NCBI GenBank assembly: GCA_027064425.1
Contig: JAMOPO010000015.1
Coordinates: 288,001 to 352,000, forward strand
Direction of reading: 5' to 3'
From: Methanobacteriota archaeon
GTDB lineage: Archaea > JAADCQ01 > Methanopyri > Methanopyrales > Methanopyraceae
DNA length: 64,000 nt
Shown: positions 46,899 through 63,774 of the stretch, one piece after another
Position numbering within the stretch: position 1 is the stretch's first letter
How the letters are laid out: the number at the start of each line of letters is the position of its first letter
Translations under genes and position numbers: made by a program
The notes under the pieces: generated by a model
What the model saw: only the letters and a program-made list of their open reading frames with translations
Database searches by the model: none
What the model was told of the DNA's origin: nothing

Positions 46899-48110
46899 CT
46901 ACTTCTCGATGATGCTCTCCTCGACCTCCATGCCGAAGTGGCGGCCCTTGCGCTCCTCGGTCTCGACGAAGGCGAGCACCTTGTCACCGGGCTTGAGGTC
47001 GACGACGGAGACGGGCTCGCCGTCCTCGCGGACGAGGTGGATGGTCTCGGCGTTCTGGACGATGGTTTGGATTTCGATGCCCTCGTACTCGGCCTTGATC
47101 AGGAGGAGCGGTCGCTTCTCGATCTTGAGGCGGCCGACGACGGCGGTGCGGGTGTTGCCGTCCTTGTCGACGATGAGGACCTCGTCGCCGGGCTCGAGCT
47201 CGGAGAGGTACTTGGTCTTGCCGCCGGGCACGCGGATGTACGCGTGGACGGGCCCGGCGTTGACGCGGAAGGGCCGCGGTTCGACGTAGGGGTTGTCGAG
47301 GCTCTCGCTGTGGATCAGGAACATGCCGCGGGCGGTGGAGCCGACGAGCATGCCCTCTCCTTCCTCCATGAGGGTGCAGGTGTCGACGCAGACGCGGTCT
47401 CCCTTGCCGATGGGCTCGATCTCCTTGATCTCGACGGGGACGAGCTCGAACTTCTCGGCGGTGACCTCCTCGGCCACCTCGGCCGTCTTCTTGATCTCGC
47501 CCGGCTCGATGCGCTGGGCGTCGAGCAGCACGCCGTCGGAGCCGACCTCGAGGGTCTCGAAGGCGATCTTGGCCTCCTCCGCGTCCCGGGCGCCGGCGAT
47601 GATCTTGGTGGGCTCGTCCTGGAGCTCGGCGATCAGGTTCTCGAGTGGGATGATCTTCCAGTCGCGGCCGATGGCGATCAGGTAGTCGGGCTCGAGCTCC
47701 TTGGAGATGTCGGCGGCGAAGCGCTCGTAGGGCTTGTCCTCGATCTCGACGTACTCGGCGACCTCGTAGCCCGCCTCCTTAACCCGACGGATGAGCTCTC
47801 CGTCGATGGACTCGCTCACGTCGTCGGGCAGGTCGATCGTGCCGTCGCCCTCGCCTCGGATGCCGACGATGACGAGGTCGGCGTCGACGTTCTCCAGCTC
47901 GTCGAGGGCCAGGTCGGGCGAGCCGCCCTCGGCCGCGAGCGGGACGGCGACCTTGACGTTGCCCAGCTCCTTGACCTTCTCCACCTCCTCCGGTAGGCAG
48001 ACGATCACGTCCGCGCCGGCCTCGATGGCCTCGGTGACGAAGGGCTTCTTCTCCTCCCACGAGCCCTCAAAGGCGATCGAGACCCAAACCTCCTTCTTCT
48101 CGTCGCTCAT
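46899..48110 (-). CDS. aroB': 3-dehydroquinate synthase II
   Basis: DWKIIPLENLIA, GDRVCVDTC, RPFRVNAG, QNAETI, GRHFG. Confidence 0.95.
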   Translation of the reverse strand: MSDEKKEVWVSIAFEGSWEEKKPFVTEAIEAGADVIVCLPEEVEKVKELGNVKVAVPLAAEGGSPDLALDELENVDADLVIVGIRGEGDGTIDLPDDVSESIDGELIRRVKEAGYEVAEYVEIEDKPYERFAADISKELEPDYLIAIGRDWKIIPLENLIAELQDEPTKIIAGARDAEEAKIAFETLEVGSDGVLLDAQRIEPGEIKKTAEVAEEVTAEKFELVPVEIKEIEPIGKGDRVCVDTCTLMEEGEGMLVGSTARGMFLIHSESLDNPYVEPRPFRVNAGPVHAYIRVPGGKTKYLSELEPGDEVLIVDKDGNTRTAVVGRLKIEKRPLLLIKAEYEGIEIQTIVQNAETIHLVREDGEPVSVVDLKPGDKVLAFVETEERKGRHFGMEVEESIIEK

Positions 48111-51587: not shown

Positions 51588-52928
51588 CTATATAACTTTT
51601 GCCCAAAGCGCCGCGTTCCGCAGCGCCCGCGCCGCCCGCTCCGGCGAGGGGAACGTCGGTACCCCGGCCTCCTCGAGCGTCCTGACACCCACAGCCACCG
51701 AGTGCCGGCCCATCCACACGCCGAGCACCGGTCCGGGGAACTCCTCCGCGAACTCCGCCACGACCCGCGCCGTCTGCACGGGCTCGGTCACGCTCTGCGG
51801 GGTGAGGATCACGAGCACCGCCCCGTACCGGTCCGGGTCCGCGAACTCCTCCAGCGCTACCCGGTAGCGGTCCGCGTCCGCGTCCCCCAGCACGTCCACC
51901 GGGTTCCCCGTCGCCGCCTCCTCCGGCAGGACCGACGGGTCGCCCCCTGGCTCCGGGAGCTCGAACCCCGCCTCGTGCAGCGCGTCCGCCGCGAGGATCC
52001 CGCCACCCCCCGCGTTCGTGACGATGAGCACCCGGTTCGAGCGCGGCGGACCCGCCTTCGCCAGGAGCTTCGCCGTGTCGAACGCCTCCTCGAACCCCTC
52101 CACGAAGACCCCGCCGAACTGCTCGACCACCCCCCGGTACACCTCGCCCGAGCCCGCCAGCGAGCCCGTGTGCGTGCTCACCGCCTCCGCGCCCGCCTCC
52201 GTCCGCCCACCCTTCAGCACGATCACCGGCTTCTCCTCCGCGCACGAGGACAGCGCCTCCACGAACGCCCTCCCGTCCTTCACTCCCTCCAGGTAGAGGA
52301 CGACTACCTTCGTCTCGTCGTCCTCGGCCAGGTACTCCAGGAAGTCCGGGAAGTCTAGGTCCGCCGCGTTGCCCAGGCTCACGAACTTGCTGAAGCCCAC
52401 CCCGACCGTGCCCACGTCCCCCGAGGAGAACCAGTCGATGACCGAGGTCGCCAGCGCCCCGCTCTGCGACACGAACGCGATGTCACCCTCCGGCGGCATC
52501 TCCGCCGCGAACGAGGCGTTCAGCCCGGCCCGCGCGTTGATGATCCCCAGGCAGTTCGGCCCCACGATCCGCACGCCCGCCTCCCGCGCCGCCTGCACCA
52601 GCTCCCGCTCCAGCTCCTCGTTCCCCGCCTCCGAGAAGCCCGCTGAGATGACCACGCAGTACCTCGCGCCGACCTCGCCCGCCTCTCGCACGACCTCCGG
52701 CACGACCGGCGCGGGCACGGCGATCACGACCAGGTCGACCGGGGCCGGCACCTCCGAGAGCGAGGGGTAGCACCGCACGCCCAGGATCTCGTCCGCGTGC
52801 GGGTTGACCGGGTACACGTCCCCCTCGAACTCCGCGAGCAGGTTCCGGAGCACGCTGTGACCCACCTTGCTCGGGTCCCGGGAGGCGCCCACGACCGCGA
52901 CCGAGCGCGGCTCGAAGAGGCGGTCCAT
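51588..52928 (-). CDS. Acyl-CoA synthetase (ADP-forming) alpha subunit
   Basis: PRSVAVVGAS, SAGFSE, GPNCLG, SQSGAL, STHTGSLAG, TNAGG, NPVDV. Confidence 0.92.
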   Translation of the reverse strand: MDRLFEPRSVAVVGASRDPSKVGHSVLRNLLAEFEGDVYPVNPHADEILGVRCYPSLSEVPAPVDLVVIAVPAPVVPEVVREAGEVGARYCVVISAGFSEAGNEELERELVQAAREAGVRIVGPNCLGIINARAGLNASFAAEMPPEGDIAFVSQSGALATSVIDWFSSGDVGTVGVGFSKFVSLGNAADLDFPDFLEYLAEDDETKVVVLYLEGVKDGRAFVEALSSCAEEKPVIVLKGGRTEAGAEAVSTHTGSLAGSGEVYRGVVEQFGGVFVEGFEEAFDTAKLLAKAGPPRSNRVLIVTNAGGGGILAADALHEAGFELPEPGGDPSVLPEEAATGNPVDVLGDADADRYRVALEEFADPDRYGAVLVILTPQSVTEPVQTARVVAEFAEEFPGPVLGVWMGRHSVAVGVRTLEEAGVPTFPSPERAARALRNAALWAKVI

Positions 52929-53297
52929 CTACTCCTCCCCCAGCAGCGCTCTGACCGCGTCCAGGACGGTCAGCACGCCCACCACGCGCCCCTCCTCCAC
53001 GACCACCGCCCGGTCCTGCCCGGCCGCCGCCATCCGGTCGAGCGCCAGCTCGAGCGGGTCGTCCGGGCGCACCTTCACCGCCTCCCGGGCGACCTCGCCC
53101 GCCCGCAGCTCCCGCCACTCGCCCGTGGCGAGCGCCCAGGCCACGTCCACCGACGTCACGATTCCGACCAGCCGCCCGTCGTCCACCACCGGCACCCCGT
53201 GGATCGACTCCTCCGAGAGCGCCCGCAGGACCCGCTCCAGCGGCTCGTCGGGGCCCACGGAGATCACGTCCTCAACCATCACGTCCCGGACGCGCAC
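52929..53297 (-). CDS. CBS-pair domain protein
   Basis: VRDVM, GVPVVDDGRLVGIVT, GRVVGVLT. Confidence 0.88.
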   Translation of the reverse strand: MRVRDVMVEDVISVGPDEPLERVLRALSEESIHGVPVVDDGRLVGIVTSVDVAWALATGEWRELRAGEVAREAVKVRPDDPLELALDRMAAAGQDRAVVVEEGRVVGVLTVLDAVRALLGEE

Positions 53298-53340
53298 GCC
53301 GCAGCCCCGGCGGACCGGGTACCGAGGCGGGTCATATAAG

Positions 53341-53356
53341 GTTAGGCTCGTCGAAC
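53341..53356. promoter_or_regulatory. Degenerate DtxR-type box upstream of ferredoxin
   Basis: GTTAGG-ctcg-tCgAAC immediately after CATATAAG. Confidence 0.4.
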
Positions 53357-53392
53357 TCGCAACGGTGATCAAGGCCGGTCTCGACCCGAAGG

Positions 53393-53617
53393 GTGGGGCT
53401 CGTGAGCGAGATCGTCGAGGTCGAAACGCGGCAGGCCCGCTTCGTGCTGGATTCGAGCGAGTGCGACGGGTGCGGTGAGTGCATGCGCGCCTGCCCGACC
53501 CGGGCCATCATCGTCGGGGAGGAGTACCTGGAGATCGATGAGGAGCGGTGCCGGGCGTGCGGTAGCTGCGCCCGGGCCTGCCCCACGGGCGCGCTCCGGA
53601 TGGAGCCCCGCGCTTGA
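53393..53617 (+). CDS. 2x[4Fe-4S] ferredoxin
   Basis: CDGCGECMRACP and CRACGSCARACP. Confidence 0.92.
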   Translation: MGLVSEIVEVETRQARFVLDSSECDGCGECMRACPTRAIIVGEEYLEIDEERCRACGSCARACPTGALRMEPRA

Positions 53618-53661
53618 TTATTTATCCCGGGACCGGCCGGCGCGGGCCGGGGTGACCGGCC

Positions 53662-54363
53662 CTGGCGGTCCGGGAGCCAACGGAGGGGGAGCTGAAGGAG
53701 CTGCGGGAGGTCCTCGAAGAGCTCACGGGTTCGGACCTCGGCATCGAGGACCGCGAGGTCACGATCGAGCGCATCCGTGGCCCCGTCCGGGCCGAGCGCG
53801 TGTTCCTGGACGGCCGGCCGATACTCACGATCACCTTCGACCCCTGGACCGCCTCCTGCGTGTACACCCTCACCCCGCACGGGGCCCGCGAGGCGGAGGA
53901 GATCACGGGCGAGCGGCCCGAGCGCCGGAGGATCGTGCGCAAGGACCCGTACGACCTGATCGACTTCGAGCCGACCGGGACCAAGCGCGACCTCGAGCGG
54001 GCCATCCGGCGCGCCCTCGAGGAGTGCGACGTGGACGTGCTCGAGCTCGAGACCGCGACCGAGATCGTCGAGGACGTCGAGCTCACCGGCGTGGCCATCT
54101 ACACCGCTCGCGAGTTCCTCTACGTCGACGTCATCCCGCCCGACCCCGCCGGCCGGCCCAACCCCATCAACGCGATCGCCCGCATCATCCACGCGTTCAC
54201 CGGCGAGGAGACCGAGCCCTGGTTGCACCCTGATTACCGCTTCCTCGGCGTCCGGCACACCCACGCGGGCAAGGAGGTCACCGTCGCCATCGGGGACACC
54301 ACCGTCACCTTCGAGGCCGTCCTAACCCGCCACGGACTCCGCATCCGCTCCCGCCGGGGGTAA
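53662..54363 (+). CDS. Hypothetical protein; N-terminus may resemble the pre-PUA region of archaeal PAPS-reductase-family proteins; probable CTG start
   Basis: Frame stays open 46 codons upstream of the GTG at 53800, back to a CTG 6 nt after a GGGGTGA RBS. Confidence 0.6.
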   Translation: MAVREPTEGELKELREVLEELTGSDLGIEDREVTIERIRGPVRAERVFLDGRPILTITFDPWTASCVYTLTPHGAREAEEITGERPERRRIVRKDPYDLIDFEPTGTKRDLERAIRRALEECDVDVLELETATEIVEDVELTGVAIYTAREFLYVDVIPPDPAGRPNPINAIARIIHAFTGEETEPWLHPDYRFLGVRHTHAGKEVTVAIGDTTVTFEAVLTRHGLRIRSRRG

Positions 54364-54368
54364 CCCCC

Positions 54369-55049
54369 GTGTACAAGCAGCGCTTCGTCCTCGACACCAC
54401 CGCCTTCACCCACCAGGACGTCGTCGACCGCCTCGGCGACGGCGACCTCTGCCGCGCCGTCTCCGAGCTCCTCGACCTCATCGCCCGCGCCCGCATGGAG
54501 CTTCACATCAGCTGCTACCTCCCGTACCCCACCGTCTACCGCGAGCTCAAGGGCTTCCTCGAGCGCAACGACTGCCCGGCCGAGCTCGTCTCCCGCCTCG
54601 ACACCTGGATCGTCAAGAAAACCCCCAACCGATACGAGGTCAAGGTCCCCGCCCGACTCTTCATGGCCTACGTCAAGGACATGCGCGGCCGCCTCGACCG
54701 CGGCCGTAAACACGCCGAGAAGGCCATCTGGAACGCCGCCCTAGAGACCTACGAGATCATGCTCCGAGAGGAGGCCGACGTGCCCAAGGAGAAGATCATT
54801 CGCGAGATCATCGGCGAGACCGTCCGCCGCTTCCGCCGCAAGTACCGCCGCACCGTCCGCCACGGTACCCTCGACAGCGCCCCCGACCTCGACGTTCTCC
54901 TCCTCGCCAAGGAGCTCGACGCCGCCGTCGTCGCCCAGGACGAGGGCATCGAGCGCTGGGCCCGCGAGCTCGGCCTCCGCTACATGCCCGCCACCTCCTT
55001 TCCCGACATGATCCAGGAGTACCTAGAGCTCGCCAAGGAGGTGGAGTGA
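54369..55049 (+). CDS. rnp3: HARP, RNA-free RNase P (PIN domain, UPF0278)
   Basis: FVLDTTAFT, KKTPNRY, GTLDSAPDLDVLLLAKEL, DEGIERWA. Confidence 0.9.
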   Translation: MYKQRFVLDTTAFTHQDVVDRLGDGDLCRAVSELLDLIARARMELHISCYLPYPTVYRELKGFLERNDCPAELVSRLDTWIVKKTPNRYEVKVPARLFMAYVKDMRGRLDRGRKHAEKAIWNAALETYEIMLREEADVPKEKIIREIIGETVRRFRRKYRRTVRHGTLDSAPDLDVLLLAKELDAAVVAQDEGIERWARELGLRYMPATSFPDMIQEYLELAKEVE

Positions 55050-56491
55050 TGCGGCTCGCGCACCACCTTAAGCCCGTCTTCGCCGTCCCCGGGGACGACA
55101 TCCACGAGCCCTACCTCGAGCTCGCCGAGCGCGACGAGCTCATCCGCACCAACCGCGAGGACACCGCCGCCTACGCCGCCATCGGCGCCGCCGAGGTCTC
55201 CAACGAGCCCGCCGCACTCCTCGCCACCCGCGGCCCCGGCCTCGCCCACGCCCTACCCGGCCTCGCCTGCGCCCTCGCCGACCACGTCCCCATCCTCTGC
55301 ATCACCGGAGCGCCCGTCGACCAGGGCTTCCAGTCCCTCCTACCCAGCCTCGAGTCCAACCGGCTCCGACTCACCGTCACCGACGACCCGAAAGAGGCCG
55401 CACGGTCCCTCGCCCGCTCCCGGCCCGCCGTCCTAACCCGGCCCCAGGCTCCCGACGAGCTCGAACCGCACCTCCGCGAAGCCCAGCCACCCCAGCCCAC
55501 CGACGATGAAATCGACGAGGTCCGCCGCCGCCTCGAGGGCAAGAAGGTCACCATCCTCGTCGGCCGCGGCTGCTACCGCTCCCTCGCCGGCGAACACATC
55601 GAGCGCCTCGCCGAGCTCCTGAACGCCCCCATCGTCCAGACCATGCGCGGCCGCGGCATCGTCCCCGAGTACCACCCTCGCAACTACGGCGTCGTCGGCC
55701 TCCGCGGCTGGGCCAACCACGTCCTGCAGGAGGCGGACGTCATCCTCGCCCTCGGCGCCCGCCTCACCGAGCGCACCCTACCCGAGGAACCCGACGCCGA
55801 GATCATCGCCGTCACCCTCCACCTCAACGGTCCCGCCGACCTACACCTCGAGTGCGATCCCGTGCCACTCCTGCAGGCCCTCGTCAAAGACCCGCCCGAA
55901 ACGCAGCCCTGGGAGCCCGAGCGCCGCGAGCCCGACGAACCCGACACCCACGCCTACCGCGTCGTCAAGACCGCCCTCCGCGCCTGGATCGGCCCCGTCA
56001 CCCTCGACTCCGGCCAGCACACGCCCCTCACCCTCCTCGCCGCCCACCTCTCCTCCCCCAACGAGCTCATCCACTCCGGCGCCTTCTGCCCCATGGGTTT
56101 CGCCCTCCCCGCCGCCCTCGGTGCCGCCACCCGTACCCCCGAGCCCGTCCTCGCCATCACCGGCGACGGCGGCTTCCTCGCCACGCATCACGAGCTCGAG
56201 ACCGCCGTCCGAGAGGACCTCCCCATCACCGTTCTCGTCCTCCGCAACCGAGAGCTCGGCTTCACCCGACAGACCGCCGACCTGGACGACCCCGAGCCCG
56301 CCAAGATGGACCTGCCCACCGACCCCGCCGACCTCGCCGAGGCCTACGGCATCGAGGTCCACCGTCTCGAGCACGACCAGACCGACGAGCTCCACCGCAC
56401 CCTCCGCGACGCCGAGATGCAGCGCGAGCCCACCGTCGTCATCGTCGAGCTGCCCCGAGAGGACATCCCGCTCCCCGGCCGGTCCGACTGA
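55046..56491 (+). CDS. Thiamine-pyrophosphate-dependent enzyme (acetolactate synthase-like, divergent)
   Basis: REDTAAYAA, TRGPG, MGFALPAALGA, GDGGF..N TPP motif. Confidence 0.85.
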   Translation: MMRLAHHLKPVFAVPGDDIHEPYLELAERDELIRTNREDTAAYAAIGAAEVSNEPAALLATRGPGLAHALPGLACALADHVPILCITGAPVDQGFQSLLPSLESNRLRLTVTDDPKEAARSLARSRPAVLTRPQAPDELEPHLREAQPPQPTDDEIDEVRRRLEGKKVTILVGRGCYRSLAGEHIERLAELLNAPIVQTMRGRGIVPEYHPRNYGVVGLRGWANHVLQEADVILALGARLTERTLPEEPDAEIIAVTLHLNGPADLHLECDPVPLLQALVKDPPETQPWEPERREPDEPDTHAYRVVKTALRAWIGPVTLDSGQHTPLTLLAAHLSSPNELIHSGAFCPMGFALPAALGAATRTPEPVLAITGDGGFLATHHELETAVREDLPITVLVLRNRELGFTRQTADLDDPEPAKMDLPTDPADLAEAYGIEVHRLEHDQTDELHRTLRDAEMQREPTVVIVELPREDIPLPGRSD

Positions 56492-56701
56492 GCCACCCCG
56501 ACCCTTCGCCCCCTCTCCCACCCTTACCATTGTAACCGTGGGCCAGCGGGCCTCAGCAAGCGACGACCCGCGACTCCAGCCCCGGCCTACAACCCGGGCG
56601 GGTCCGGCCGAGGGGCGAGCGCGCCCATCGGTCCCGGCCTGTACGCTGCGGTGGGGTCGGCCCGCCCTCGCAACCGTTTTATCCTCCAGCCTGATTACAA
56701 A

Positions 56702-57349
56702 ATGACGGCACGCCCGGAACCCGGGGTGGCGCGAGTGACCTGGCAGGGCGCCCCATTGCCTTCGGATCCCGTGGAGCGGATTCGGTGCCTGCGCGTGCTC
56801 CGGGAGGCGTATCGGCGGCAGGTCAAGCCCGAGCTGCGAGAGACGTACCGGCGGGTTGGCGGGAAGACGTACGGGCCTTATTACGTCGCGTACTTTAAGC
56901 GGACTCCGGGGCGCCGGCACCCCAGGCTGATCTACCTGGGCAAGTCGGGCCCGAGCGTCGAGTTCGTCGAGTGGCTCGCCGAGCAGTCGAGGAGAACCGT
57001 GCTTGACCTTGCTCGACTCGCGGTGCGGCACCTTCGAGCCGCGCTCGAGCGGATCGTTGAGGAGGCTCGCGGGTCGGGGGACTCGCGCCGGCTAATCGCC
57101 CGCACCCTCGCCCTCGCCTTCGACCTCGAGCCCGCAGGACTCCCCCAGCTCCGCGACCTCCTCGACCGAGCACCCAGGTTCGCGAGGACCGTGCTCGGCC
57201 CCTGGAAAGCCTGGTTCACCGAGCGGGTGCTCAGAAAGCTCCTCTACCGCCGGTCTCGGGATGGTAAGCGCTGGGTGCCCGACGTTCAGCTCGAGCTTGA
57301 GCGGTGGCGGTCCGGGCGCGGGGCGCGGTGCGACCGGACGCGACCGTGA
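56702..57349 (+). CDS. Basic, Arg-rich Methanopyrus-type orphan (DUF1678-like)
   Basis: ELRETYRRVGGKTYGPYYVAYF..RLIYLGK motif; family call from memory only. Confidence 0.55.
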   Translation: MTARPEPGVARVTWQGAPLPSDPVERIRCLRVLREAYRRQVKPELRETYRRVGGKTYGPYYVAYFKRTPGRRHPRLIYLGKSGPSVEFVEWLAEQSRRTVLDLARLAVRHLRAALERIVEEARGSGDSRRLIARTLALAFDLEPAGLPQLRDLLDRAPRFARTVLGPWKAWFTERVLRKLLYRRSRDGKRWVPDVQLELERWRSGRGARCDRTRP

Positions 57350-57501
57350 TCTCCGCGGGACACTCGGCGTGAGCGTCGGCTCGGGTCGGTCGGGCTCGCT
57401 CCGGGTCGCGAGCGTTTTCCGGGGGTCATGTCCTCCATCGTGTTGGCACCCTCGGCTCGGGGCGGCCCCGAAGCCTGCGCCCCCACCGCTCGGAAACGGG
57501 T

Positions 57502-57520
57502 CGTTATGGGGCTTGTAACG
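57502..57520. repeat. Spaced palindrome copy 6
   Basis: CGTTA-tggggcttg-TAACG. Confidence 0.75.
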
Positions 57521-57530
57521 TTCCGTGGGC

Positions 57531-57594
57531 GGCCTCGGGGCCCGCGACTCCGATCATCCCCGGCGGTCGCCGTGGGTCCACCTCATCATCGGCC
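57531..57594 (-). ncRNA. C/D box sRNA candidate
   Basis: Reverse complement GGCC-g-ATGATGA-12nt-GCGA-..-GGGATGA-15nt-CCGA-GGCC with terminal stem. Confidence 0.6.
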
Positions 57595-57598
57595 GGTT

Positions 57599-57617
57599 CG
57601 TTCCGGTGGTCGTAACG
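57599..57617. repeat. Spaced palindrome copy 7 (one mismatch)
   Basis: CGTTc-cggtggtcg-TAACG. Confidence 0.6.
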
Positions 57618-57653
57618 ATTGGGTTTTTCGGTCGTGGGTGCGCGTGGGGCGCC

Positions 57654-57711
57654 GCGGGATGAGGAGAACCCCGGTCTCTGAGGTGTGATGAGGGATAGGC
57701 GTGCCGACCGC
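57654..57711 (+). ncRNA. C/D box sRNA candidate
   Basis: GCGG-GATGA-15nt-CTGA-ggt-GTGATGA-12nt-CCGA-CCGC with terminal GCGG/CCGC stem. Confidence 0.65.
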
Positions 57712-57745
57712 AAGGGTCTTGTCGTGGGAGGGGACCGGTGCGGAT

Positions 57746-57802
57746 GGATGATGAGGGGCTGATGTGCCGAGCTCGATGAGGTGAAGGGCGGGTGTGCTGA
57801 CT
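57746..57802 (+). ncRNA. C/D box sRNA candidate
   Basis: ATGATGA-12nt-CCGA-gc-TCGATGA-17nt-CTGA. Confidence 0.55.
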
Positions 57803-58809
57803 CAGAGCGTGATGGTGCCGAGCTGTCGGGCGCGCTTGAGGAGGCTCTGGAGTGGTGGGTCCTCGGGCTCGAGCTGGAGTGGGTCGCCGAGCTCCCACTC
57901 CTCTTTGAGCCACTCGAGGGCGCGCTGGGCGGCCTGGTGGGCCTCGTGGTCCCAGCCCCAGGGTAGCGGGACGAGGACGGGGTAGGCGGTCTCGCCGTCG
58001 TAGAGGACGACGGCGGTGTCGTAGTGGTGGCCGCAGTGGACGCCCTCCTCGGTGAGGGCGCGGTGGAGCTCATCGTTGAGCTGGGCGGTGGTGAGGACGC
58101 CGTCGGGGTCGGGGGACTTGCGGAGGTAGTCGCGGACGCCGCAGCCGCTCTCGTTCTTCCACCACTCGAAGCGTGGGAAGTGGAGGTCGGCCTCGCGCAG
58201 GGCGGCGACGACGTGACCCTTGTCGAGCTTGAGGTCAAGGAGTGGGCGGTACTCGAGGGCGTTGGGGTGCTCGGTGGTGGGTGGCATCTGGGCGCGGTGT
58301 GGGGCCTCGCCGTAGTTGGCGCCGCCGAGGATGAGGGAGCCGGGGAAGGCGTGAGCGGCGGCCTCGAAGCGGAGCTTGCCGCACTGCTGGCAGAGGTCGC
58401 GCTTGGCGTTGTATGGGGGTGGCGGAACCTGGAGGTGGTAGAAGCTGACGGGGGTCTCGTAGTGCTGGTCGAGGTGCTGGGCGACTAGGTGGGCGCGGGC
58501 GTGGACGAGGGCGCGGGGCATGCCGGGGAAGAAGCCGATGGTGTAGAGGATGAGCTCGACGCCGTACTCCTCGCAGGCGCGGGCGGCGGCGACGGCCAGG
58601 ACGGCGCTGTCCATGCCCTCGAGGGCGACGCAGACCTGGGCGGGCTCGGTGCGGTGCATGGTGTCCTGGATGGCCTGGGTGATGCGGTCGAGGACGCCCT
58701 CCTCGTGGCGGTGGTACGGGTAGACGGCGTCCCAGATGGGCGCCTCGTGGGCGGACGGGGCGCTCTCAACGGTCTCGAGGTCGCGCTTGCGGGGCTGGAT
58801 CTCGTGCAC
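57802..58809 (-). CDS. Divergent PP-loop-like (adenine nucleotide alpha-hydrolase) protein
   Basis: ALEGMDSAV (altered SGGxDS), CQQC, GANYGE, YRPLL, SGC. Confidence 0.6.
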   Translation of the reverse strand: MHEIQPRKRDLETVESAPSAHEAPIWDAVYPYHRHEEGVLDRITQAIQDTMHRTEPAQVCVALEGMDSAVLAVAAARACEEYGVELILYTIGFFPGMPRALVHARAHLVAQHLDQHYETPVSFYHLQVPPPPYNAKRDLCQQCGKLRFEAAAHAFPGSLILGGANYGEAPHRAQMPPTTEHPNALEYRPLLDLKLDKGHVVAALREADLHFPRFEWWKNESGCGVRDYLRKSPDPDGVLTTAQLNDELHRALTEEGVHCGHHYDTAVVLYDGETAYPVLVPLPWGWDHEAHQAAQRALEWLKEEWELGDPLQLEPEDPPLQSLLKRARQLGTITL

Positions 58810-59008
58810 CTCGATGCGGGCCAGCGGTGTCTCACCCCCTCGCGCGGAGGTTATTTTGGGGGTGGGCCCTGTGCCCGGGTGTCGGCGCGCGCGTCATCCC
58901 TCCTGATCGGTCGGCTAGGACGCTGTCCCGGGCTCTGGGCCGGGCCCTCATCGGCGGCCCGTCGGGCTTCCGTCGGGCCCGGGTCGCGGGCGTTGGGGGC
59001 CCGTGCGC

Positions 59009-59716
59009 ATGGCCCTGCTGGAGGTTAAAGACCTGAGGGTGCGCGCGGGCGGCAGGGAGATCGTCAAGAGGGCGTCGCTGCGGGTGGACGAGGGAGAGAT
59101 CGTGAACCTGATCGGGCCGAACGGGTCGGGTAAGAGCACGCTGGCGCGGGCGATCATGGGGAGTGAAGGCTACGAGGTGGAGGGGGAGATTCGGTTCAAG
59201 GGCGAGGACATCTCGGACCTCCCGATGCACGAGCGGGCGCGGCGCGGGCTGACGCTGTGCTGGCAGGAGCCGGCGCGGTTCGAGGGGCTGACGGTGGGCG
59301 AGTACCTGATGGCGGGGTGCGACGACGAGGAGTGGGCGCGCCGGTGCCTACGGATGGTGGGGCTGGACCCGGACGAGTACTGGGAGCGGGAGTGTGGTGA
59401 GGGCCTGAGCGGTGGCGAGCGGAAGCGGGTGGAGCTGGCGTCGGTGATGGTGATGCGACCGGACCTGGTGATCCTGGACGAGCCGGACGCTGGGCTGGAC
59501 ATGACGTCGTCGGAGGACCTGGCAAAGCTGATCGAGTGGATGCGGAGGGAGGGCTCGTCGGTCCTGCTGATCACGCACAGCCGGGATCTGGCGGAGCGTG
59601 TGGGTGACCGGGCGTACCTGATGATGGACGGGGAGATCGTGGAGGAGGGCGACCCGGAGGAGATCGTGTACAAGTGCCGGATGTGCGGGGGAGACCTGGT
59701 GTGCGAGGCGGAGTGA
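59009..59716 (+). CDS. sufC: Fe-S assembly ATPase SufC
   Basis: GPNGSGKSTL, ERARRG, WQEPARFEG, LSGGERKR, LDEPDAG, C-terminal CxxC..C. Confidence 0.9.
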   Translation: MALLEVKDLRVRAGGREIVKRASLRVDEGEIVNLIGPNGSGKSTLARAIMGSEGYEVEGEIRFKGEDISDLPMHERARRGLTLCWQEPARFEGLTVGEYLMAGCDDEEWARRCLRMVGLDPDEYWERECGEGLSGGERKRVELASVMVMRPDLVILDEPDAGLDMTSSEDLAKLIEWMRREGSSVLLITHSRDLAERVGDRAYLMMDGEIVEEGDPEEIVYKCRMCGGDLVCEAE

Positions 59717-60624
59717 GCGAGGAGGAGGTGTTCGGTCCGGCGGAGTACCACGCGGATCCCGACGCTCCCCGGGTGGTGATCCTGGAGAACAAGGTGGTGA
59801 ACGTGCAGGATCGGGAGGGGCTGGAGCTGGAGGCGGAGGAGCTGGACGACGGCGTGCGGGCGGAGCTGGTGGTGAAGGAGGGGTTCGAGCTGGACGAGCC
59901 GGTGCACTTCTGCGTCGGGATCCCGTGGGAGGAGGGCGTGCAGCGGATCGAGACCCGGGTGGTGGTGGAGCCCGAGGCTCGGATCAGGCTGCTGTCGCAC
60001 TGCTCGTTCCCGCGGGCGGAGGACGTGCTGCACGAGATGAAGGCGGAGTTCGTGGTGAAGGACGGCGCGGAGCTGGAGGTGCAGGACATTCACTACCACG
60101 GTGAGGGTGGCGTGCGGCTGCGGGCGGAGTACGATGTGGAGGTGGGCGAGGGAGCCCGGCTCTCGAGCGAGTTCCGGCTGACGAAGGGTCGGGTGGGCGA
60201 GCTGTGGTGGGTGTCTCGGGGCGTGGTGCGTAGGGAAGGCTCGCTGGAGGGTGTGGTCCGGATCATGGCGCGGGAGGACGACAAGGTGGACATCGAGGAG
60301 AGCGTGCGGCTGGTGGGTGAGGACTCGCGGGCGGTGCTGGACTCGCGCGCGGCGGCGATCGACGGGGCTCGGGTGCGGTTCGTGGGCGAGCTGTCTGGTG
60401 AGGCCCCGGGCGCTAAGGGCCACGTGGAGTGCTCCGAGATCATCCGCGGCGACGGTCGGGTGGAGAGCGTGCCGAAGCTAAAGGTGGTGGATCCCGACGC
60501 TCGCCTGACGCACGAGGCGGCGCTGGGAACGCTCGAGCGCCGCGAGATCGAGGCGCTTATGTCCCGGGGCCTGTCGGAGGAGGAGGCCGTCGAAATGCTC
60601 GTGGAAGCGATGCTGAGGGGGTAG
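59713..60624 (+). CDS. sufB: SufB/SufD family Fe-S assembly scaffold
   Basis: PVHFC, HCSF, KGHVECSEI, SVPKL, LTHEAALG, LMSRGL. Confidence 0.88.
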   Translation: MSEEEVFGPAEYHADPDAPRVVILENKVVNVQDREGLELEAEELDDGVRAELVVKEGFELDEPVHFCVGIPWEEGVQRIETRVVVEPEARIRLLSHCSFPRAEDVLHEMKAEFVVKDGAELEVQDIHYHGEGGVRLRAEYDVEVGEGARLSSEFRLTKGRVGELWWVSRGVVRREGSLEGVVRIMAREDDKVDIEESVRLVGEDSRAVLDSRAAAIDGARVRFVGELSGEAPGAKGHVECSEIIRGDGRVESVPKLKVVDPDARLTHEAALGTLERREIEALMSRGLSEEEAVEMLVEAMLRG

Positions 60625-60629
60625 TCCGC

Positions 60630-61292
60630 TTGGCCGTGGAGGAGGGTGACTTCGTGAAAATCCACTACACGGGCCGCGTGAAGGAGACCGACGAGGTGAT
60701 CGACACGACGCGGGAGGAGGTGGCGGAGGAGCACGACCTGGACGTGCGGACGGGTCCGGTCGTGGTCGTGGTGGGGGCAGGGATGGTCTGGGAACCGGTG
60801 GAGGAGGAGCTGAAGGGCAGGAAGCCGGGCGATGAGTTCGAGGTGGAGGTGCCTCCGGAGAAGGCGTTCGGTGAGCGGGACGCGTCGCTGGTGCGGACGT
60901 ACCGGCGGTCGGAGGTGCGAGGGGATGTGCGGCCGGGTGGCACGGTGGTGACGCCGGAGGGTCGCCGGGGCCGAGTGGTCAGCGTGGACGGTGGCCGGGT
61001 GCGGGTGGACATGAACCATCCGTTGGCGGGAAAGACGCTGGTGTACGAGGTGGAGGTGCTGGAGGTGCTTGAGGGCGTGGAGGAGCGGGCGGAGGGGTTG
61101 CTGGACACGCTGGCGCCGGGGATCGACGTGGAGCTGGAGTGGGAGGACGAGGACGGGACGCTGCGGCTGCGGGTGGAGGGTGAGGACGCGGTGAAGACGG
61201 GATGGTTCGGGGCGAAGCGGCGGTTCGTGGAGCTGATGCGAGAGCACGACGATCGGGTGGAGAAGGTGGTCGTCGAGGAGGTGTTCAAATAA
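60630..61292 (+). CDS. FKBP-type peptidyl-prolyl isomerase (long archaeal/SlyD type)
   Basis: [34 protein letters not shown]. Confidence 0.93.
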
Positions 61293-62343
61293 CGCCGGTC
61301 TCGCGGGCGGCGCGCTCGGCGGCCTCGCGGGTGAGGCCGCGGTCGCCGAGGATGGTGTAGCGTTCGGGCCGGATCTCGTGGGCGGTGCAGAGGGCCTCGA
61401 TCAGCTCCTCCTCGCTGATCCCCAGCTCCTCCGCGGTGGTGGGAGCGCCGGCGCGCTTCAGGGTGTCTCGGATGCGACGCCAGTCGCCGCCGTGGAGGTA
61501 CTCCATGATAATGGTGCCGACGCCGCACTGCTCGCCGTGGAGGGCGGGGCGGTCGGCGATGACGTCGAGGGCGTGACTGAAGAGATGCTCGGAGCCGCTG
61601 CAGGGGCGGGAGGAGCCGGCGATGCTCATGGCGACGCCGCCGCTGATGAGGGCCTGAACGAGCTTCTTGATGCCCTCGGGCAGGAGCTGGCCGATGGGCT
61701 TGGCGTTCTTGATGACGATCTTGGCGGCCATGAGGGAGAGGCTGGCGGCGTACTCGCTGTAGGGCTCGTTGCGGAGCCGGTGGGCGAGTCGCCAGTCCTT
61801 GACGGCGGTGATGTTGGACACGACGTCGCCCACGCCGGCGCGGATGAGCCGCTCGGGGGCCTCCCGGATCACGTTTATATCAGCGAGCACGGCGAGCGGT
61901 GCGTGGGCGGGCTCGGAGTAGGGCCGGTCCTCCCTGCGGATGGAGGCGAAGGGTGAGGCGATGCCGTCGTGCGAGGCGGAGGTGGGCACGCTGACGAAGG
62001 GGATACGCTCGCGATAGGAGGCGACCTTGGCCACGTCGATGACCTTCCCGCCGCCCACGGCGACCGCGACGTCGGCTCCCGCGGCCTTGAGCTCTTCCAA
62101 AGCCTTTTTCACGTCCTCCTCGGTGGACCCCCGGACGATCACCGTCGTGGTCTCGTACCCGGCCTCCTCAAGGTACTCCTCCACGTCCCGGCCCGCGACC
62201 TTCTTCGTGGTGGGACCCGTGAAGATCGCGACCGTGCCCTCCGGGATGCCGACGCTCCGCAGGAGGCTCGGGGCGTCGGGCAGCACGTCGGTCCCGACGA
62301 GGACCTCGCGCGGGAGCTGCATTCTCTTCTTCGAGATCTCCAC
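61285..62343 (-). CDS. egsA: Glycerol-1-phosphate dehydrogenase
   Basis: [49 protein letters not shown]. Confidence 0.95.
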
Positions 62344-62370
62344 GGTAACCAGCCCCGGCGGGGTGATCGT

Positions 62371-63774
62371 TTGGAGTTCTCGGAGTGGTACGCGGAGGTG
62401 TTGAGGGACGCGGAGGTCATGGACGTGCGGTACCCGGTTAAAGGCCTGTACGTGTGGCTGCCCTACGGGTTCGAGATCCGGCAGCGGGTGATCGAGAAGC
62501 TGCGGAAGCGGCTGCGGGAGACGGGGCACAAGGAGGTCCTGTTCCCAACGCTGATCCCGGAGACGCAGCTGGAGAAGGAGGCGGAGCACATCGCGGGCTT
62601 CGAGGACGAGGTGTTCTGGGTGACGCACGGTGGCCTGAAGGAGATGGACGAGAAGCTGGCGCTGCGACCGACGAGCGAGACTGCGATCTACCCGATGTTC
62701 GCCCTGTGGATACGATCGCACGCGGACCTGCCGCTGAAGGTCTTCCAGATCGTGAACACGTTCCGGTACGAGACGAAGCACACGCGGCCGCTGATCCGGA
62801 TGCGGGAGATCACGACGTTCAAGGAGGCGCACACGGCGCACGCAACGCGGGAGGAGGCGGAGGAGCAGGTGCGGGAGGCCTTCGAGATCTACTCGTCGTT
62901 CTTCGAGGACCTGGGCATCCCGTACGTGGCCTCGGTGCGGCCGGAGTGGGACAAGTTCCCGGGCGCGGAGTACACGGTGGCGTTCGACACGGTGATGCCG
63001 GACGGGCGGGCGCTGCAGATCGGAACCATTCACATGCTGGGTCAGAACTTCTCGAAGACGTTCGACGTAACCTTTGAAACGGAGGAGGGGGACCAGGAGT
63101 ACGCCCACATGACCTGCTACGGAGTCTCGGACCGCGTCGTGGCCTCGGTGATCGCGATCCACGGGGACGAGCACGGGCTCGTTCTGCCGCCGGACGTGGC
63201 CCCGTACCAGGTCGTGATCGTGCCGATCCTGAAGAAGGGCATGCGAGAGGAGATCCTGCAGCGGGCTCGGGAGGTGAAGGAGGAGCTATCTGAGGTGGCG
63301 CGGGTCAAGCTCGACGACCGGGACATGAGCCCGGGACGAAAGTTCCATTACTGGGAGCTGAAGGGTGTGCCGCTGCGCGTGGAGATCGGCGCCCGTGAGG
63401 TGGAGGAGGACACGGCGGTCGTCTTCCGGCGGGACGAGATGGAGCGAGAGACGTACTCCGCCTCGGAGCTGCCGGACGTGGTCCCGGAGCTGCTGGACGA
63501 GATGAAGAAGAACCTGCGGGAGCGGGCCTGGGAGAGGTTCGAAAAGTTCATGCACCGGGCCGAGTCGCTGGAGGAGGTGCGCGAGTTCGTCGGCGACGGC
63601 ATCGTGGAGACCGGTTGGTGCGGGTCGGAGGAGTGCGGTCGGAAGCTGGAGGAGGAGGTCGAGGGCGACGTTCTCGGCACTCCTTACCCGGAGGAGAAGG
63701 GGCCCGAGTTCGACCGGTGCCCCGTGTGCGGGGAGCCCGCCGAGCACACGATCCGCGTGGCCAAAACTTACTGA
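62371..63774 (+). CDS. proS: Proline--tRNA ligase (archaeal type)
   Basis: [40 protein letters not shown]-terminal AKTY. Confidence 0.97.

Follow-up and report, generated by a model that had tools for sequence, protein, structure and literature searches.

A sharp, local switch of strand composition in a Methanopyrus-type archaeon and the DUF1678 gene at its centre

Does an abrupt passage of one DNA strand from C-rich to G-rich mark the place where an archaeal chromosome starts to replicate, or can another process leave the same trace? The question is raised by a stretch of 64,000 nucleotides (the window) at positions 288,001 to 352,000 of the 430-kb contig C15 in the draft genome of a Methanopyrus-type archaeon (G000; 1.54 Mb in 57 contigs, 68% GC, 99% complete). 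Coordinates given without a contig prefix are window positions. A first-pass annotation had noted a switch from C to G near 57 kb and had proposed a bidirectional origin, with an orphan gene at its centre encoding a non-canonical initiator. We compared the window with five genomes of a single genus (G001 to G005), using as the main measure the plus-strand GC skew at four-fold codon sites, calculated per gene. G001, a sister genome, is a closed chromosome of 1,694,969 bp with 61.2% GC, and G002 is likewise of lower GC; G004, at about 70% GC, is the nearest relative of G000. The switch is real, and it is local rather than chromosome-scale, hence an unusual kind of DNA site.

A local switch that ignores gene direction

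In 1-kb bins, the total GC skew is -0.22, -0.28, and -0.18 across 54-57 kb, then +0.11, +0.24, +0.35, +0.35, and +0.28 across 57-62 kb. At four-fold sites, the two genes to the left of the switch stand at -0.91 and -0.82 and the first gene to its right at +0.89. The left arm (51588..56491), where the plus strand is C-rich with A in excess over T at synonymous sites, comprises four genes: ACD alpha (ADP-forming CoA ligase alpha; 51588-52928, minus strand, skew -0.46), an unnamed gene (53656-54360, plus, -0.33), HARP/PIN_5 (54369-55049, plus, -0.91 from 108 C and 5 G), and a TPP enzyme (55046-56491, plus, -0.82 from 258 C and 25 G). The right arm (57802..63774), G-rich with T over A, holds an unnamed gene (57802-58809, minus, +0.89), SufC (59003-59716, plus, +0.70), SufBD (59674-60624, plus, +0.56), FKBP (about 60621-61292, plus, +0.67), Fe-ADH_2 (61285 to about 62340, minus, +0.53), and ProRS (about 62350-63774, plus, +0.50). 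Gene names were assigned by Pfam profile search, and with these calls the gene strands and codon examples of the first-pass annotation hold.

Genes of either direction thus carry the sign of the plus strand in both arms. All eight four-fold codon families are shifted at the flip, Gly least. The skew at codon positions 1 and 2 also moves slightly in the same sense, from about -0.08 to +0.03 in two bins on the left to +0.11 to +0.14 on the right, which indicates mutation or conversion pressure rather than codon choice. The centre of the switch is at most 1.3 kb wide in G000 and at most about 250 bp wide in G004. Scored with 3.6-kb arms, the flip reaches 0.83, a value matched by 0.67% of 3000 random places, and with three-gene arms its step of 1.36 ranks second among 1170 gene boundaries; chance is unlikely as its cause.

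The asymmetry does not extend far. The arms measure about 5 kb on the left and about 6.5 kb on the right (about 12 kb in total), and outside them the skew is near zero. Rightward it declines in the gene order given above and then drops to 0.15; FeoB (minus strand), beyond the left arm, stands at +0.14, and the genes beyond the right arm at +0.15 and -0.41. The cumulative minimum of total GC skew in the 430-kb contig lies elsewhere, not at the flip, although the 57-contig draft limits this test. The chromosome-scale origin signature that had been read into the switch is consequently not what the window contains: the arms fade within about 5-7 kb, and the switch is one of at least six local domains.

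Could the flip require no special site at all, if it merely joined the two sides of an inversion, the edge of a foreign DNA patch, or adjacent gene classes of differing codon preference? Coding-strand skew does vary from gene to gene (standard deviation 0.245), and a lone gene at 46902-48110 (minus strand) has a skew of +0.63, whereas its neighbours stand at -0.07 and -0.29; from it to the next gene, the drop is among the three sharpest of the genome. However, G001, G002, and G004 keep the same gene order across the switch, with only a 1-kb cassette differing, which rules out the inversion breakpoint that the first-pass annotation had raised as a way to explain the flip. Core genes (suf, ProRS, HARP) lie in the arms, and all 10 arm genes fit one switch point. 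Throughout the genome, adjacent genes on opposite strands have opposed coding-strand skews (r = -0.38, n = 403), which ties the skew to strand and location rather than to individual genes. The pattern is also shared: G004 has the same flip in the same place, and a G005 contig spanning the left arm has the same C-rich skew. Collinearity, the single switch point, and the anticorrelation largely refute this explanation, and we consider it highly improbable.

The inserted cassette and the spacer around it

The gene at the centre lies on a cassette of 1,035 bp (56492..57526, plus strand) that is an insertion specific to G000. Its product (gene 56702-57349, alternative start 56651, plus strand; four-fold skew +0.03) matches the DUF1678 family (PF07913) over its full length (profile positions 2-195 of 196, E 8e-44, 150.2 bits against a cut-off of 25), and the label of orphan given to it earlier does not apply. 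The family has 10 matches in G000 and 19 in G001; it was found in all six genomes of the class and in none of 14 control genomes. DUF1678 is thus a multi-copy family found only in Methanopyrus-type genomes.

The cassette has a promoter-like stretch of 34 nt upstream, found also ahead of the ATG of 3 other DUF1678 copies, and its own gene-end palindrome. It is absent from the orthologous site in G001, G002, and G004. Likewise, assembled contigs from 4 of 4 metagenome runs compared (5 are listed), in which a related strain is dominant, join position 56491/56494 to 57527/57522 and skip the cassette. Because the cassette is missing in relatives and neutral in its own skew, it arrived after the flip had formed, and because G004 flips fully without the central gene, this gene cannot cause the flip or be its resident initiator. 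An att-type duplication was sought at the cassette, but the junctions share only an 11-nt word and loose similarity, which is not convincing.

The DUF1678 protein is basic, and its AlphaFold model has a pLDDT of 86.7. A Foldseek search of this model against the PDB gave no match at E <= 0.001; in the VIA wide structure search the best Z was 3.1, for winged-helix regulators amid unrelated rows. The PHROGs search returned nothing below E 0.1, the protein atlas gave leads under 0.9 only (e.g., DUF6788 at 0.87), and Pfam at E <= 10 revealed no notable second family in 22 DUF1678 members. No published function for the family was found in a literature search, which turned up no paper naming it.

Two palindromes with nine-base spacers, reported in the flip interval by the first-pass annotation, were located there. 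The first, at 57502-57520, matches CGTTA(N)9TAACG exactly and lies at the 3' end of the cassette; the second, at 57599-57617, has 1 mismatch and is contained in a conserved spacer element (57527..57625) that aligns with the empty site of G004. The window has 7 matches to CGTTA(N)9TAACG where 0.27 are expected, and a passage of PMC5217627 describes this sequence as a gene-end motif downstream of M. kandleri tRNA genes. For the small RNAs (sRNAs) placed in the same interval, Rfam covariance models gave two C/D-box-like candidates. One, at 57655..57709 (plus strand), matches sR60 with 32.4 bits, below the gathering score of 50, and E 9.4e-5, and has 84% identity over 57 nt in G001; a second similar unit follows about 63 nt downstream, with a box-like direct repeat at 57686-57707 and 57749-57770. 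The other, a putative sRNA at 57533-57593 (minus strand), matches sR53 with E 0.49, which is a hint only. At 57708-57907, the dominant strain of the 4 metagenome runs has 109 other letters in place of 198 bases; the replaced segment, a second variable spot of the spacer, covers the second of the C/D-like units together with the gene end.

Similar sites elsewhere in the genome

We scanned the whole of G000 for comparable steps with 5-kb arms and a threshold of 0.4. Genes were called genome-wide by a GC-frame rule, which mis-called a shadow frame at SufC/SufBD and left the plus-strand skew unaffected. Among the 13 steps found, 6 are C-to-G and 7 are G-to-C, the latter mostly being outer borders of the same domains. 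The C-to-G jumps lie at C29:23.7 kb (0.99), the window flip (0.78), C15:183 kb, C15:115 kb, C26:12 kb, and C5:15.6 kb. Further sites are seen at gene level at C57:88 kb and at contig ends that open within a strongly skewed arm (C26, C29, C45, and C57), so that there are about ten such sites in G000, with at least six strong up-jumps of the same polarity. At C57:88200-89400 the up-jump is again sharp, from -0.69 to +0.61, and its left edge (C57:88.2 kb) carries a C/D-box-like sRNA with a start resembling that at window position 57655.

Averaged over the six flips, GC skew at third codon positions is -0.34/-0.31 on the left and +0.40/+0.39/+0.31/+0.19 on the right, while the corresponding AT skew is +0.26 on the left and -0.34/-0.43 on the right. 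Left and right alike, G and T are therefore in excess on the strand running outward. Such a G/T excess on the outward strand is the classical pattern of leading strands or of deamination in single-stranded DNA.

Is DUF1678 tied to these sites? The first-pass annotation had proposed to test whether skew minima coincide with paralogs of the central gene. An association with up-jumps is seen in G000: of 5 testable DUF1678 copies, 3 rank within the top 5% of the null (Mann-Whitney p 0.009), a further 4 copies lying at contig ends. G001 has 19 matches and no flips. By a criterion set post hoc, a DUF1678 gene accompanies each of the 6 strongest flips, either no more than about 2 kb away in G000 or at the orthologous locus of G001. 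In G004, 1 of 2 copies follows a 4.5-kb arm with skews of -0.36 to -0.62. The best reading is that DUF1678 tends to mark up-jump sites and is at the window a passenger or marker, not the maker. The link between the family and up-jumps is new as far as a literature search shows.

The other centres are diverse. The strongest up-jump of the genome lies on a spacer of about 300 bp at C29:23289-23600. No 120-nt stretch in the large contigs is richer in AT than the one in this spacer (GC 0.42). A gene of 324 aa follows directly downstream, and UniRef gives the name PriS to its orthologue in M. kandleri; in G001 and G002 the orthologous gap contains a DUF1678 gene. The Pfam model DNA_primase_S has no match across G000 (99% complete), the PriS of the genus being too diverged for it. 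At two of the six strongest flips, intron-bearing tRNA genes lie exactly on the switch (C15:183648-183753 and C5:15712-15822). The only two LAGLIDADG_3 proteins of G000, which are paralogous (37% identical over 250 aa), adjoin these same flips, the combined loci spanning C15:181837-183753 and C5:15712-17319. Between the arms of another flip lies an island of 6.4 kb (C15:111500-117900), which measures 1.1 kb in G001 and comprises five open reading frames with no Pfam match and a DUF1678 gene at its end.

The stable RNA genes at several centres suggest an explanation that needs no start of synthesis. Strong promoters of small stable RNA genes in the spacer, acting in two directions, would generate untranslated transcripts that read through for kilobases, and their RNA-DNA hybrids (R-loops) would leave the displaced non-template strand to be deaminated. 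A G/T excess is what would be expected on that strand, and decay over kilobases with abrupt ends would fit leaky termination. The mcr operon and the L2 ribosomal-protein cluster, which are highly expressed mRNA operons, are unskewed, indicating that ordinary transcription is not the source; protection by ribosomes would account for this in the R-loop case. Besides the two intron-bearing tRNA genes and the C/D-box-like sRNAs at the window centre and at C57:88.2 kb, two contigs start with a tRNA gene or with a 23S end and tRNA-Leu, and the arms that come next have skews of +0.48 to +0.96. However, tRNA genes were rejected as a general cause, since only 2 of 28 testable ones have a flip that exceeds the background's 99th percentile; at C5 and C45 the strong arm lies upstream of the tRNA gene, and for the strongest flip, at C29:23.4 kb, Rfam returned nothing with E up to 1. 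Moreover, C/D sRNA genes are reportedly very numerous in M. kandleri, as Su et al. are said to have found in 2013, so one near a centre means little. On balance, R-loops appear to us a serious rival, though a rather unlikely cause.

A break or nick hot spot deserves similar attention. Here the spacer would be cut repeatedly at a specific site and repaired from sister copies, and either the resynthesised outward strands or a strand-specific correction of G/G against C/C mismatches in heteroduplex would bias G against C along the repair tract. The composition of the arms suits this, as the differences from G001 are mainly exchanges between G and C (458 G|C against 76 C|G in the left arm, 382 C|G against 80 G|C in the right arm), and an arm divergence that is not raised fits conversion better than mutation. 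All centres examined are hot spots of insertion or rearrangement, as illustrated by the window cassette, the island at C15:111-118 kb (6.4 versus 1.1 kb), the presence or absence of DUF1678 at C29:23.4 kb, and a synteny break at C5, and the two LAGLIDADG_3 copies adjoin the tRNA-centred flips. Tracts of a few kb are also the natural scale of resection and gene conversion. Nevertheless, 5'->3' resection is established to expose the strand running inward, on which classical deamination would give the opposite polarity. The window centre has no nuclease gene, the DUF1678 model has no match to a known fold, and the mechanism of the bias is hypothetical. We regard breaks, too, as a serious rival but a rather improbable source of the skew.

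The bidirectional chromosomal origin that the first-pass annotation had proposed, with DUF1678 as initiator, can now be weighed. The polarity is indeed that of an origin: as with diverging leading strands, C-rich DNA gives way to G-rich DNA in which T exceeds A. The lack of Orc1/Cdc6 on which the proposal drew also holds: Pfam Cdc6_C has no match in G000, and a passage of PMC3914693 gives Cdc6/Orc1 as missing in Methanopyrales. For the Methanopyrus strains SNP6 and KOL6, origin prediction failed or was inconclusive, according to the relevant lines of PMC5504354. DUF1678 itself is enriched at up-jumps, basic, confidently folded, and found only in Methanopyrus. Yet the skew is local and the contig minimum lies elsewhere, the centre has no AT-rich unwinding stretch or origin motif, and the gene was inserted later, is neutral in skew, and is dispensable for the flip in G004; its many copies in G001 come with no flips. 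The spacer at C29:23.4 kb is a better origin candidate than the window flip, for which a DUF1678-driven chromosomal origin is very unlikely.

What may act at the spacer, and what it would mean

Our favoured explanation, which we hold tentatively, is that DNA is unwound or synthesised in both directions, over a short range, from a fixed site at the window flip. The fixed point would be the short spacer between the convergent genes for the TPP enzyme and 57802-58809, from which DNA would repeatedly be opened or newly made outward in both directions for a few kb. On each side, the strand running 5'->3' away from the centre would stay single-stranded longer and, at about 100 °C, would lose C and A through deamination. 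As G or C occupies about 90% of third codon positions in the clade, the net result would be a near-complete replacement of C by G on the outward strand, so that the plus strand is rich in C to the left of the centre and rich in G to its right. The site would be one of about ten local initiation zones in high-GC Methanopyrus, origin-like in polarity and short in range; the identical polarity of all 6 strong up-jumps was counted in favour of such zones, as were the sharp centre, the outward decay, and the AT-rich spacer beside the PriS-like gene at the strongest up-jump. Recombination, or transcripts of small RNA genes, may provide the priming in this genus, which lacks Orc1/Cdc6. DUF1678, on a mobile cassette that was inserted later, marks such sites without having made this one. 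The skew itself, its indifference to gene direction, its short extent, its recurrence, its limitation to one clade, and the late arrival of the cassette are observed; exposure of single strands, outward synthesis, and a connection with replication are inferred.

Several observations weigh against this explanation. Forks that replicate a chromosome are expected to carry skew much further than the roughly 5-7 kb reached by the arms, which forces the assumption of a short-range process. Some outer edges are abrupt (a step of -0.99 at C29:35.6 kb and of -0.72 at 63.8 kb in the window), and among sharp steps the upward ones have only a modest majority (7 up and 3 down at 0.8; 16 and 15 at 0.6). The window centre contains no AT-rich stretch, its lowest GC per 120 nt being 0.62, nor a clear repeat array or a motif shared with other centres; when the two spacer halves were searched by BLAST against the genome, the 34-nt stretch upstream of DUF1678 was the only part that recurred. 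The flip is, furthermore, restricted to one high-GC clade. The orthologous genes in G001/G002 do not flip (HARP +0.47/+0.52, TPP enzyme +0.15/+0.18, and the gene at 57802-58809 about 0), and G003, in which the right-arm genes alone align, shows no flip over them. The whole chromosome of G001 has no global skew and no local step of at least 0.4 (standard deviation 0.09), and the six orthologous flip sites score 0.16, 0.02, 0.18, -0.07, -0.03, and -0.03 there. Finally, third-position divergence between G000 and G004 is 0.10-0.23 in the arms and 0.12-0.26 outside, arguing against a mutation rate that is currently raised. Both arms are less skewed in G000 than in G004, and the process may be fading in G000.

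A more far-reaching version of the short-range unwinding or synthesis proposed for the window, in which about ten initiation zones start DNA synthesis, DUF1678 proteins are DNA binders that mark the sites, and the skew is the footprint, seems to us quite improbable. We reserve about a sixth of the probability for explanations not yet conceived.

How does the window flip compare with known systems? Like the bacterial or archaeal chromosomal origin, oriC, with its Orc1/Cdc6, origin recognition box (ORB) repeats, and AT-rich element, it has a sign change, a G/T excess, and independence of gene direction. It differs in that its arms cover 5-7 kb rather than a replichore, about ten such sites exist, AT-rich element, repeats, and Orc1/Cdc6 are lacking, and the flip is absent in the sister genome of 61% GC. 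Its amplitude is also far larger, about 0.9 at four-fold sites, an asymmetry much stronger than the skews known for bacterial origins. Local secondary origins of mobile descent are known from the run-off replication of the Bartonella gene-transfer agent and from prophages replicating in situ. These resemble the proposed bubble in being local, two-way, fading with distance, and linked to mobile genes; in contrast, the window has no phage or plasmid replication gene at its centre, and its arms are core genes in conserved order. The nearest concept is that of the bidirectional strand asymmetries centred on human CpG islands (Polak and Arndt 2009, PMC2817419). The skew jumps of mammalian initiation zones are alike in their many sites, sharp upward jump, and outward decay, and in the debate over replication, transcription, or recombination as the cause; the present jumps occur in an archaeon, span kb rather than hundreds of kb, and have a far larger amplitude. 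No report of local skew domains in Methanopyrus turned up in our literature search.

In summary, a sharp skew flip is by itself insufficient for calling an origin. How replication starts without Orc1/Cdc6 in Methanopyrales and Methanococcales is a long-standing open question, as stated in a passage of PMC3914693. Should the zones indeed start DNA synthesis, the window flip and the AT-rich C29 spacer by priS would be the first mapped start sites of the order. High-GC Methanopyrus offers about ten precisely placed sites, each fixed to a few hundred bases by an asymmetry of up to 0.9 and tied to one lineage-specific gene family, DUF1678. Whether initiation, R-loops, or breaks are at work, these sites map where the two DNA strands are treated unequally at 100 °C.

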